This document shows positions 2,054-20,778 of a stretch of 64,000 nt of DNA, in pieces; positions within the stretch are counted from its first letter, which is position 1, and each line of letters opens with the position of its first letter. The position numbers and the translations under genes were made by a program. Origin of the DNA: Nanobdellota archaeon (GTDB taxonomy: Archaea > Nanobdellota > Nanobdellia > Pacearchaeales > GW2011-AR1); assembly GCA_038045825.1 (NCBI GenBank), contig JBBSXJ010000003.1, positions 148 through 64,147 on the forward strand, read 5' to 3'. The notes under the pieces were generated by a model. It was not told the DNA's origin. It ran no database searches and saw nothing but the letters and a program-made list of their open reading frames with translations.

Positions 2054-2394
2054 GTGAGTCGGGCAGCTAACTCCGAAGGTGTCTTTCGATAGACAAGAGT
2101 TTTTATGAATTCTCCTTTGAGGAAGGTCCGGACATCGATAAAAGCGACTGCTTGAAAAGGCAGCTGTCGTGAGGCAAGAGCTCCGCAACAGAAACGAACC
2201 AACCTTTTAATTAAGGGAACGGATGAAACGCACTAATTGTGCATCGCACAATGGTGACTCCAACTCTCACGAGTTGAAGTGGCGCCTTCGCTGATGCAAC
2301 CACCAAAGCCGTGGGCTTAGAATGATGTTAGCACAAAGAGTTTGTCCTGAAAGGGAAACGATCTTTGACAGAATCTGGCCTATGCCTGACTCAC
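2054..2394 (+). ncRNA. rnpB: RNase P RNA
   Basis: P1 GTGAGTC/GACTCAC; P2 GCTAAC/GTTAGC; CR-I GAGGAAGGTCCGGAC (2119-2133) pairs with CR-V ACAGAATCTGGCCTA as P4 with bulged U and compensatory changes; CR-II ACAGAAA and CR-III TGAAACG present. Confidence 0.93.
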
Positions 2395-2454: not shown

Positions 2455-3207
2455 GTGGGTATAATCTTAACTTACGAAGATCTTCTAACTACTTACAAAA
2501 CTCGAACGCATCGAATAAGACACTTAAAAGATTACACTCATCTTTTTCCAATCAATGCAAATGAAACTTTAGCAGGTATTGTTGCAGATTTAATGGGAGA
2601 CGGCAATTTACAAAAAACTCCTGTTTGGAGAATTGATTTTACTTCTAAAGATTTAGAAGAATTAAAAAGATTTGAAACTGAAATGTTAAAAAATTTTAAC
2701 ATTAATGGAAAAATAAGGCCTTGCTCCACTAATAAATATCACACCTATAATATCGGATTTAATTGCGCTCCTGTTGCTCGCATTTTATATCTTGCAGGTG
2801 TTCCTGCTGGACAAAAAGTCTTACAAAAATTTGATTTACCAAACTGGATAAAAGAAGATAAAGACTATTTTAGAAGGTTTTGCCAAAGATTATTTACTTG
2901 TGAAGGAAGCATTAATTATGAGTTAGGGAGAAATCCTAGAGTCGGAATAAATATGTGGAAATGTGAAGAATATTTAAACCAGGGAAGAATTTTCTTTGAA
3001 GATATATCTGATTTAATGAAAAAATATTTTGATATAGACTCTAAGGTTAGTGTTGGAAGTTCAAAGAATTTAAGAAAAGATGGGATAATTACCAGACCAG
3101 TATACATACTAATACCATCTAAATCTACTTTAATATTTCATAAGAAAATTGGTTTTGAAGGGGAAAAACAGAATAGACTTTCTAATATTCTAAATACTAA
3201 AGTTTAA
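2455..3207 (+). CDS. Free-standing two-motif LAGLIDADG endonuclease-like protein
   Basis: Motifs LAGIVADLMGDGNL and RLFTCEGSI; no intein splicing residues at the termini; GTG start. Confidence 0.85.
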   Translation: MGIILTYEDLLTTYKTRTHRIRHLKDYTHLFPINANETLAGIVADLMGDGNLQKTPVWRIDFTSKDLEELKRFETEMLKNFNINGKIRPCSTNKYHTYNIGFNCAPVARILYLAGVPAGQKVLQKFDLPNWIKEDKDYFRRFCQRLFTCEGSINYELGRNPRVGINMWKCEEYLNQGRIFFEDISDLMKKYFDIDSKVSVGSSKNLRKDGIITRPVYILIPSKSTLIFHKKIGFEGEKQNRLSNILNTKV

Positions 3208-3233
3208 AACCGCTCTTTTTTATTGTGTTCTAT

Positions 3234-3305
3234 GGGCGGGTAACTCAGTGGGAGAGTACACGACTGAAGCTCGTGCTGCCGGGGGTTCGATTCCCTCTCC
3301 GCCCA
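3234..3305 (+). tRNA. tRNA-Phe(GAA), intronless, CCA not encoded
   Basis: Cloverleaf: GGGCGGG/TCCGCCC acceptor, ACTC/GAGT D stem, CACGA-CTGAAGC-TCGTG anticodon arm, GGGGG-TTCGATT-CCCTC T arm. Confidence 0.95.
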
Positions 3306-3749
3306 TTAATTAATAACAAAACCTGTTATTTGTGCATTAAGTGGTTTCCCAAAAACATAATCACAAGGCATTGCTGTGCCTTCTGCGTTTTCTATTATTG
3401 GTATAATGGAGAGCTGTTTATCATTTACACTTTCTAAATTAACTTCTTGAGAAATTGATTGTCCTGGATTTAGAACTAAATCTATTTTTTGAATATCTAT
3501 ATTATCTAGATCGTCTTTGATTTGTAAATTAAAACCTTTTATGACTTCGTTTCCAGTATTTGTTGCTTCAATAAAATAAACTCCCCATTCCTGATTTATT
3601 CCTGCTTCAAATGAAACTCTTTCACAGTATGGAGCAGGAGCAAGTTGAGCAATGAATTCATTGCTGGAATTGTATACTATGAATCCAATCGTAACTGTTA
3701 TTGCAATTAATATTACTGTAGCAATTATCGGCGAAACTCCTTTTCTCAC
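3306..3749 (-). CDS. Archaellin/type IV pilin N-terminal domain protein
   Basis: Class III signal peptide MRKG/VSPIIATVILIAITV. Confidence 0.8.
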   Translation of the reverse strand: MRKGVSPIIATVILIAITVTIGFIVYNSSNEFIAQLAPAPYCERVSFEAGINQEWGVYFIEATNTGNEVIKGFNLQIKDDLDNIDIQKIDLVLNPGQSISQEVNLESVNDKQLSIIPIIENAEGTAMPCDYVFGKPLNAQITGFVIN

Positions 3750-20469: not shown

Positions 20470-20563
20470 TATTCCAAAAGAGTATCTGTTGTCGTTGAAC
20501 TCGTTCCAGTTGTTGCCGTTAAGGTTCAATCTGTCATCGTTCTCGTTCAAATCAGGAACTCTT
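20470..20563 (-). repeat. DGR template repeat (TR)
   Basis: 94 bp, 9 AAC codons; 71/94 identical to the VR, with 17 of 23 mismatches at TR adenines (hand alignment). Confidence 0.9.
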
Positions 20564-20778
20564 CATTAGCCACTTACTTGAAATTAAACCACCACAATTT
20601 CAGGTTTCGCTTTTTGCGCAATTGCTACTTGCTGTTATTGTTGAATATTATTGGCAAGTGACGTGTAGCCTCGGCAAGTGCTTTTAGCACTCCAAGACAG
20701 AATAATTAGAATTTATTGATTAAAAATGTTTCTTAAAAAAGTTCGCTATTTGTCTAAAAAGTTTTTTTGCGCGCGTTC

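Follow-up and report, generated by a model that had tools for sequence, protein, structure and literature searches.

An archaeal RNase P RNA with a probable captured tRNA-gene-associated element at the P13/P14 site

Introduction

RNase P RNA, the ribozyme that trims tRNAs, serves as a model for the growth and shrinkage of ancient ribozymes, and its type M form occurs in Methanococci and Archaeoglobus. According to the textbook description, archaeal type A RNAs contain P16, P17 and P6 and have no P13 or P14, and type M RNAs have no P8 (PMC4919922). A 2026 survey reports that P16/P17/P6 have been lost independently in many archaeal lineages, and it treats P19 as an ancestral feature (PMC12974513). 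Its main text lists archaeal expansions at P12 and P3 only, at the tips of both, and presents P14 as a bacterial addition (PMC12974513).

Here we describe an RNase P RNA gene located within the window, which is the whole 64,000-nt stretch of DNA that was analysed and to which all coordinates given without a contig label refer. The RNA carries an archaeal core and an additional pair of hairpins at the site where bacterial P13 and P14 emerge. These hairpins are probably a captured copy of an element that is dispersed through the genomes of the genus. All relatives used for comparison are metagenome-assembled genomes. Within the genus set the present genome is labelled G000, and congeners carry other G numbers.

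Identification of the gene and its host

The RNase P RNA gene spans positions 2054-2394 on the forward strand (341 nt), as do all parts of the RNA described below. Its identity, which the original prediction had assigned by hand folding, is established by full-length Infernal matches to both Rfam models, with E values of about 1e-22. The archaeal model RF00373 aligns over its full length (model positions 1-288; 77.8 bits, E = 2.7e-22), and a permissive cmscan of positions 1950-2500 aligns the bacterial type A model RF00010 to 2055-2397 at the same locus (model positions 1-367; 76.5 bits, E = 1.8e-23). The predicted ends also proved exact, given that P1 pairs 2054-2064 with 2384-2394. No second RNase P RNA match is present anywhere in the 0.84-Mb, 16-contig genome, and the gene is thus a single copy.

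Both scores fall below the Rfam gathering scores, which are 84 bits for RF00373 and 100 bits for RF00010, and a scan of the window at gathering threshold reports no RNase P RNA. The archaeal gathering score is passed by 28 of 40 relatives, the best of which reach 180 bits, and the bacterial one by none of 41. The shortfall on RF00373 is due to the insert and to the short P12, both described below. Because the bacterial model aligns the insert as P13 and P14, it draws level with the archaeal model, and it wins the Rfam clan competition at this locus. With both cut-offs missed and the bacterial model winning, annotation pipelines will miss or mislabel genes of this kind.

These features of the scores also speak for a bacterial (CPR) origin of the gene, a possibility raised by the first cmscan. 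However, for congeners without the insert the archaeal model yields 123-134 bits and the bacterial model just 58-77 bits, and the contig and genus carry archaeal rRNA and marker genes. Specifically, three congeners have the 3' end of an archaeal 23S rRNA upstream of this gene, at a distance of 1.1 kb (346, 196 and 110 bits), Hjc and Cbf5 are encoded within the window, and the ribosomal operon of the genome is of the archaeal type, with SUI1. Furthermore, all conserved regions and P4 are intact in the only copy of the gene, and P18 and the L15 GGU motif are missing. A bacterial origin is therefore all but ruled out, and the host is a Pacearchaeota (DPANN) archaeon.

The sequence TTTAAATATA at 2025-2034, read directly from the DNA, resembles an archaeal TATA box and lies about 25 nt upstream of the RNA 5' end, a position that suggests a promoter element. 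Immediately after position 2394, the T-rich run TTTATTTT (2395-2402) likely serves as a transcription stop.

Several other features of the neighbourhood and of the wider genome were recorded. An ORF of 250 amino acids with a LAGLIDADG_3 match (E = 5e-7) occupies 2455-3207 on the forward strand, between the RNase P RNA, which ends 60 nt before it, and tRNA-Phe (3233-3306). It appears to be free-standing, with no evident intron surrounding it, and has a 90% identical homologue in the same position in congener G001 and a 28% identical paralogue at C1:20878-21543. An Rfam match to RT-16 RNA is found, in an archaeon, at 20561-20697 on the reverse strand (73.9 bits against a cut-off of 50), and its neighbours are unassigned ORFs, Hjc, Cbf5 and a thioredoxin-reductase-like gene. 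In congener G012 (L047, 1-717), the 23S rRNA 3' region upstream of the RNase P gene contains a 406-nt insertion near position 2690 of the archaeal LSU model, which is probably an rRNA intron or intervening sequence. ARAGORN reports a tRNA-Glu with a 101-nt intron at position 41 and a tRNA-Tyr with an 84-nt intron (C4:237570-237745 and C5:344-500), and tRNA introns of these lengths are unusually long for such a small genome.

Secondary structure of the archaeal core

Infernal alignments, with base pairs read from the sequence, locate P1-P5, P7-P11 and all five conserved regions (CR-I to CR-V). The RNA opens with the 5' strands of P1 (2054-2064) and P2 (2066-2071), which pair with 2384-2394 and 2327-2332, respectively. 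P3 (2074-2079 with 2114-2119) is branched into P3a (2080-2095) and P3b (2096-2113), and its loop holds a 35-39 nt insert relative to the model. In an alignment inspected by eye, the two sub-hairpins show compensatory changes across the genus and family (GUCU/AGAC, GUCA/UGAC and GACA/UGUC; AGAGUU/AAUUCU and ACAAU/AUUGU). The segment 2120-2136 comprises CR-I with the P4 5' strand (GAGGAAGGUCCGG) and the P5 5' strand (CAUC, 2133-2136). P4 pairs with 2375-2381, where the usual A-U pair is replaced by G-C (GG..CC).

The P7 5' strand (2143-2147) is followed by the P8 hairpin (2148-2163) and by the P9 hairpin with its GUGA loop (2164-2178). P8 is supported by a compensatory change, CUGCU/GGCAG here and CUUCC/GGAAG in congener G007. 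The original prediction had placed P5 (CAUC/GAUG), P7 (AGCGA/UCGCU), P8 (CUGC/GCAG) and P9 (GUGA loop) correctly. The 5' strands of P10 (2179-2180) and P11 (2184-2187) and CR-II (ACAGAAACGA) occupy 2179-2198, as mapped from the archaeal-model alignment of relatives. Comparison with relatives reveals a shortened, 24-nt P12 (2199-2222): from the CR-II motif to the CR-III motif, the interval containing P12 measures 29 nt here versus 58 nt in most relatives. CR-III (AUGAAACG, 2223-2230) is kept as GAUGAAAC in nearly all relatives. After the insert, alignments and fold place the 3' strands of P11 (2281-2284), P10 (2286-2287), P7 (2288-2292) and P5 (2293-2296).

P15 is a plain 4-bp hairpin, CCAC (2300-2303) with GUGG (2311-2314), closed by a 7-nt loop. 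It covaries in 28 relatives (CCAC/GUGG, CCGC/GCGG, GUGC/GCAC and GUUCC/GGAAC), with 11-13 sequences changed on both sides per pair. Next come CR-IV (GCUUAGAAUGAUG) and the P2 3' strand (2327-2332), which together span 2315-2332, and GCUUAG is an invariant single-stranded CR-IV among relatives. The P15 first proposed, AAGCC/GGCUU, is thus a chance complement that conflicts with both the covarying helix and the invariant CR-IV. Its companion claim, that P16, P17 and P6 are absent, is borne out. Neither Rfam model finds these helices or the GGU loop for CCA, as 4 nt stand in place of 41 bacterial or 34-39 archaeal model positions, and relatives are alike in this respect. A bare P15 hairpin is normal for the whole order. 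CCA is encoded in only 6 of the 36 tRNA genes of the genome, which fits the missing L15 loop.

Between the 3' strands of P2 and P4 lies a P19 hairpin (2334-2367) of approximately 13 bp with a GAAA tetraloop (2349-2352). Every relative has an insert at the P19 position, and all 11 of the predicted pairs show compensatory changes. CR-V with the P4 3' strand (ACAGAAUCUGGCCUA) and the P1 3' strand complete the RNA (2368-2394). None of the 24 P18 positions of the bacterial model is filled. P19, the branched P3 and the shortened P12 were absent from the helix set originally proposed. The loss of P16/P17/P6 and the presence of P19 are real features of this RNA, but they are already published for other archaea (PMC12974513).

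The two-hairpin insert after CR-III

The distance from CR-III to GCAA is 65 nt here versus 15 nt in most relatives, and the extra 50 nt correspond to positions 2231-2280. Hairpin 1 (2231-2256) occupies the P13 position and consists of a CACUA/UGGUG base, one bulged A, a UUGUGC/GCACAA helix and an AUC loop. Hairpin 2 (2257-2280) occupies the P14 position and pairs ACU-C-CAACUC with GAGUUG-A-AGU around a conserved C.A mismatch, with a UCAC loop. Both are present in the minimum-energy fold of 2179-2292 (z = -2.2), and the RF00010 alignment scores them as P13 and P14.

The hairpins AUUGUGC/GCACAAU and CAACUC/GAGUUG of the original prediction are therefore real, as judged from this fold and from 23 aligned copies of the element described below, in which the pairs covary. 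The proposal that CACU/AGUG closes the whole insert did not hold. Covariation instead backs CAC (2231-2233) with GUG (2254-2256) as the base of hairpin 1, with pair types UA/CG and AU/GC/CG among copies. Overall, the observation was real and mostly accurate, with the P15 register and the insert closure as its two details overturned by covariation. Since the AUC and UCAC loops are not of the GNRA type, nothing indicates a docking role for the insert in this genome.

A dispersed element with the same architecture

Short-word BLAST and a motif scan identify six copies of the two-hairpin element in this genome: the one in the RNase P gene, one directly 3' of tRNA-Gly (C4:166455-166519), one beside tRNA-Met (C7:43-91), and three diverged copies. 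The motif scan detects no copy in the ribosomal operon. The signature hairpin CTMCAAYT..ARTTGAAGT gives 28 matches in 13 of the 17 genus genomes, compared with a single match for a reversed-pattern control. An order-wide scan finds it in 7 of 201 genomes, five of which belong to this genus. We designate this element type b. It consists of a variable hairpin 1 and a conserved hairpin 2 (ACUCCAAYU..ARUUGAAGU), the latter being the family signature used for the pattern scans, and the pattern is the same inside and outside RNase P.

Both hairpins are maintained in the 23 aligned copies, in which 81% of cells are paired, versus 69% in shuffles (0 of 500 reach the observed value) and 19-43% when partners are slid. 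Nine of the ten pairs of hairpin 1 change on both sides, and hairpin 2 has 98% of its cells paired, with two compensatory pairs. The mean folding energy of the copies is -16.5 kcal/mol, versus -9.5 kcal/mol for shuffles.

Most copies in the genus (25 of 28) lie outside RNase P, some of them in genomes whose RNase P RNA has no insert. When the distinct copies outside RNase P are considered, 17 of 22 are located no more than 125 nt from a tRNA gene. The tRNA-linked copies are flanked by 18-42 nt direct repeats of the tRNA 3' end, whereas the RNase P copy has no flanking duplication. Their typical layout is a tRNA, a few nucleotides, an inverted copy of the T-loop/T-stem (GGAAUCGAAG), the element, and then the 18-42 nt duplicate of the tRNA 3' end, which begins at T-loop position 58. 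Loci with this arrangement include C4:166384-166540 and C7:1-200 in this genome and L056, L057, L058, L062 and L077 elsewhere. Certain genomes instead have the element within a tRNA gene copy, in antisense orientation, where it separates the T-loop from the T-stem. The RNase P flank GGAUGAAACG, which is CR-III, resembles the usual flank GGAAUCGAAG, and the archaeal model aligns the 3' end of the element, GUUGAAGU, to CR-III. A resemblance of CR-III to the target of the element is therefore plausible, if unproven.

Possible carriers and routes were also considered. Viral contigs yield 79 pattern matches where approximately 140 are expected by chance according to a hand estimate, and none has the family hairpin 1 or a complementary stem. 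Known viruses were thus rejected as carriers, their matches being at chance level. Retro-insertion through a reverse transcriptase beside the RT-16 RNA was likewise rejected, as no reverse-transcriptase gene is nearby. Among the matches listed by a metagenome scan for further RNase P genes with the element, only two sequences, both G007-like, were recovered.

A sub-family of the element and a separate repeat family were also noted. The three diverged copies in this genome (C1:35750-35815, C4:182900-182963 and C4:234430-234494) are nearly identical to each other and form a sub-family (..CUACAACUUCUUUGAAGUUGAAGU) that sits inside a longer repeat with shared flanks (..UCAAGACUUCGAU and CAUCCAAAAAUCGAGCACCAAUCA..). 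Congener G012 has 13 copies, distributed over 11 contigs, of the 18-nt palindromic hairpin GAAATTCTCTAAAATTTC or a one-base variant, which constitute a separate, genome-specific family.

Distribution and history of the site

Within the genus, the type b element is found in the RNase P RNA of only G000, G007 and G004. Congeners G008, G009, G010 and G016 have no insert, and G001, G002, G006, G011, G012 and G014 carry a different module of 40 nt, which we call type a. Hairpin 1 of type a is constant (GAAAUUC-GNNA-GAAUUUC) and hairpin 2 covaries, mostly with a GAAA loop. We considered whether type a is also a dispersed element, but no exact copy of its hairpin was found outside RNase P genes, and looser matches are at control level. 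Because its signature hairpin is confined to RNase P genes, not every module is demonstrably mobile.

From P4 to CR-III, the G004 RNA is 91% identical to that of insert-free G016 and only 60% identical to that of G000. G000 and G007 share the short P12, and G004 combines a full P12 with the element. The 102-nt segment made up of the short P12 and the element is 99% identical between G000 and G007, whereas the rest of the RNA is 86% identical, which is no closer than to other species. These identities indicate at least two events in which an RNase P gene received the module, by insertion or by exchange with another RNase P gene. Thus, at least two of the acquisitions among the three species that carry the element in RNase P RNA appear to be independent.

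The P4-P5 18-mer is shared by 56 named Pacearchaeota-type RNase P RNAs. A two-hairpin insert follows CR-III in 22 of them, and the other 34 are insert-free. Among the inserts, 5 are type a, 2 are type b and 15 belong to other classes, many with GNRA-type loops, and the first hairpin of the commonest other class covaries. In the sister family f4, 13 of 20 RNAs have inserts at the same site. Four of the f4 RNAs (L114, L122, L113 and L126) carry a AAAAUCnnnnGAUUUU hairpin module both at the P12 tip and after CR-III of a single RNA, which suggests modular duplication or insertion inside one RNA.

Given that about 40% of related species have some other two-hairpin module there, the site after CR-III is a recurrent expansion point, analogous to bacterial P13/P14 and not inherited from it. 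This result bears on the idea, also part of the original prediction, that the RNA represents a DPANN subtype with P13/P14-like helices. The host is indeed a DPANN archaeon of the Pacearchaeota and two helices do occupy the P13/P14 position, but the RNA is not a fixed subtype, as RNAs with and without an insert are interspersed among the species of a single genus, and the inserts fall into at least three sequence classes that are unrelated to each other.

In congener G006 (L016), about 85 nt are additionally inserted into the RNase P RNA between P5 and P7, and they contain a CUACAACUU motif and long hairpins. A second site of RNase P RNA has therefore been colonised in that species.

Protein subunits of the holoenzyme

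Six-frame Pfam searches of the 17 genus genomes reveal weak Pop5 matches in 6 and weak Rpp30 matches in 10, as well as one marginal Rpp21, whereas Rpp29 is detected in none of the 17. The present genome carries orthologues of the Pop5-like (C1:47826-48092) and Rpp30-like (C4:248803-249210) genes, with scores below the Pfam cut-offs, and Rpp21 was not detected in it. The same method finds Rpp29 in 114 of 151 genomes of a phylum sample but in none of the four family members included there, the other three of which are 98-100% complete. Across the family, Rpp29 was found in 0 of 20 genomes.

A class-specific Rpp29 profile matches nothing among all ORFs of this genome, and in its ribosomal operon the conserved position where Rpp29 is usually encoded, between SUI1 and S17 (C3:84877-85699), is empty. 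Relocation of Rpp29 within the operon was rejected, because its two unassigned ORFs have no match in Pfam or PDB; of these, C3:82133-82492 is an orphan, and the other lies at C3:86117-86458. Rpp29, and probably Rpp21, are thus undetectable in the family, and judging from sequence searches the lineage may have a reduced RNase P protein set alongside an intact specificity domain. Extreme divergence of Rpp29 may instead account for these results. Partial RNase P protein sets have been noted in other archaea (PMC4919917). The findings suggest a variant holoenzyme that is worth reconstituting.

Origin of the insert

We favour, with a probability of roughly 0.7, a model wherein this is an archaeal-core RNase P RNA whose positions 2231-2280 are a captured copy of the dispersed tRNA-gene-associated element rather than inherited P13/P14. 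A small two-hairpin element, scattered through the genus genomes mostly beside tRNA genes with duplicated tRNA 3' ends, would have landed in the RNase P gene at the junction from which P13 and P14 emerge in bacteria. This junction would be a permissive, outward-facing site, which related species fill with other two-hairpin modules. The RNA would act as the catalytic subunit of an archaeal ribonucleoprotein RNase P, with a type M-like catalytic domain that retains P19 but has no CCA-binding loop. Its specificity domain would retain the CR-II/CR-III tRNA-elbow module, with a short P12 and the captured element projecting from the junction. The enzyme is presumably a ribonucleoprotein with divergent Pop5 and Rpp30 that does not recognise the tRNA 3'-CCA end. 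In principle, the direction of copying could be reversed, from RNase P to the other sites.

The two helices might alternatively have arisen in place as a functional, lineage-specific, P13/P14-like expansion that stabilises the specificity domain, such that the look-alikes elsewhere are secondary copies or coincidence. Such a history would be in keeping with the many relatives in which two-hairpin modules occupy the site and show compensatory changes and GNRA-type loops (type a, class c and family f4), and with the restriction of the type a signature hairpin to RNase P genes. Moreover, with Rpp29 and Rpp21 undetectable in the family, a need for RNA-based stabilisation could have been created. 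We nonetheless consider an origin in place quite improbable, because most type b copies in the genus lie outside RNase P and near tRNA genes, and some reside in genomes whose RNase P RNA is insert-free. The pattern of a variable hairpin 1 and a constant hairpin 2 is also alike in both settings, and G004 gained the insert on an RNA that is 91% identical to one without it.

Deleting 2231-2280 restores GAUGAAACGGGCGCC, as found in insert-free relatives, and the same outcome would result if the insert were an intervening sequence removed from the transcript, either as an intron cut by the tRNA-splicing endonuclease or through rRNA-style processing, to leave an ordinary Pacearchaeota RNase P RNA. 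The element does interrupt tRNA genes at the T-loop/T-stem junction in G004 and L069, where its exact removal restores a normal T-arm, and archaeal introns do occur at such tRNA positions. However, a hand analysis of both possible arrangements found no bulge-helix-bulge motif (3-nt bulge, 4-bp helix, 3-nt bulge) at the borders in either the RNase P gene or the G004 tRNA. The 4-bp central helix cannot form at 2230/2231 and 2280/2281, nor in the interrupted L069 tRNA, and a bulge-helix-bulge intron was rejected on these grounds. Furthermore, splicing would not be needed at most of the tRNA-linked copies, because each of these has an intact duplicated tRNA end next to it. Removal of the insert from the transcript therefore seems very unlikely to us. 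The absence of this motif at the borders, the covariation of neighbouring module classes and the peripheral location of the site together suggest that the mature RNA retains the insert, which is presumably transcribed, as a peripheral extension of the specificity domain, where it would be tolerated or mildly stabilising.

Capture of the dispersed element can be extended into a more speculative scenario, in which a lineage without Rpp21 and Rpp29 is regaining RNA-based support at the P13/P14 site through the capture of mobile hairpins. The copy in the window would then be a recent arrival from a family that targets tRNA genes and enters T-loop-like sequences. We view this scenario as unlikely, although if true it would offer a live example of how expansion segments originate in ancient ribozymes, with RNA taking a role back from protein. 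Within an archaeal order, two-hairpin modules have filled the P13/P14 site repeatedly. For one of these modules the donor, a dispersed element tied to tRNA genes, is visible, which provides a concrete and testable mechanism for the birth of an expansion segment.

Comparison with known systems

The original prediction that this helix set fits neither archaeal type is upheld when the types are taken as defined in PMC4919922. In common with archaeal type A (RF00373), the RNA has P1-P5, P7-P12 including P8, and CR-I to CR-V, and is missing P18. The genome also encodes putative archaeal Pop5-like and Rpp30-like proteins. The archaeal core, comprising CR-I to CR-V, the P4 pseudoknot and P1/P2/P3/P5/P7/P9/P10-11, is complete. 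The RNA differs from type A in its reduced P12, its two-hairpin module after CR-III and its score of 77.8 bits, below the cut-off of 84. In place of a P15-P16-P17 arm with a P6 pseudoknot it has a P15 that covaries as a closed hairpin, and two hairpins fill the P13/P14 site, which is vacant in type A.

The resemblance to type M lies in the simple P15 hairpin without P16, the P6 pseudoknot or a CCA-binding loop, and in tRNA genes that mostly do not encode CCA (6 of 36 with CCA here). However, P8 is present (2148-2163) and covaries. The lineage is also unrelated to type M, and the loss of these elements is thus independent, as described for many archaeal lineages (PMC12974513).

The element itself is reminiscent of Rickettsia palindromic elements, REP/MITE-like repeats and bacterial rRNA intervening sequences, which are likewise short, structured, dispersed repeats with a patchy distribution in close relatives. 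As with such hairpin repeats and intervening sequences, it is tolerated at a surface site of an essential structured-RNA gene. No transposase or recombinase was identified, and no copies were found in viral contigs. It is set apart by its strong association with tRNA gene 3' ends, apparent target duplications of 18-42 nt at the tRNA-linked copies, an inverted T-arm copy and the lack of terminal inverted repeats.

Bacterial type A P13/P14 (ES5.3 in PMC12974513) shares with the insert its site, between CR-III and the 3' strand of P11, and its two-hairpin layout, and the GNRA-type loops of the bacterial docking helices are matched in related species. The RNA as a whole is not of bacterial type A, given a score of 76.5 bits against a cut-off of 100, the missing P18 and P16/P17, and an archaeal host. 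The insert also differs from the bacterial helices in its patchy occurrence among close relatives, the several unrelated classes found at the site and its apparent source in a dispersed element. The relation is one of analogy rather than homology. Without the insert, the helix set is a published reduction; the new part is an archaeal expansion at the P13/P14 site with an identifiable donor element.
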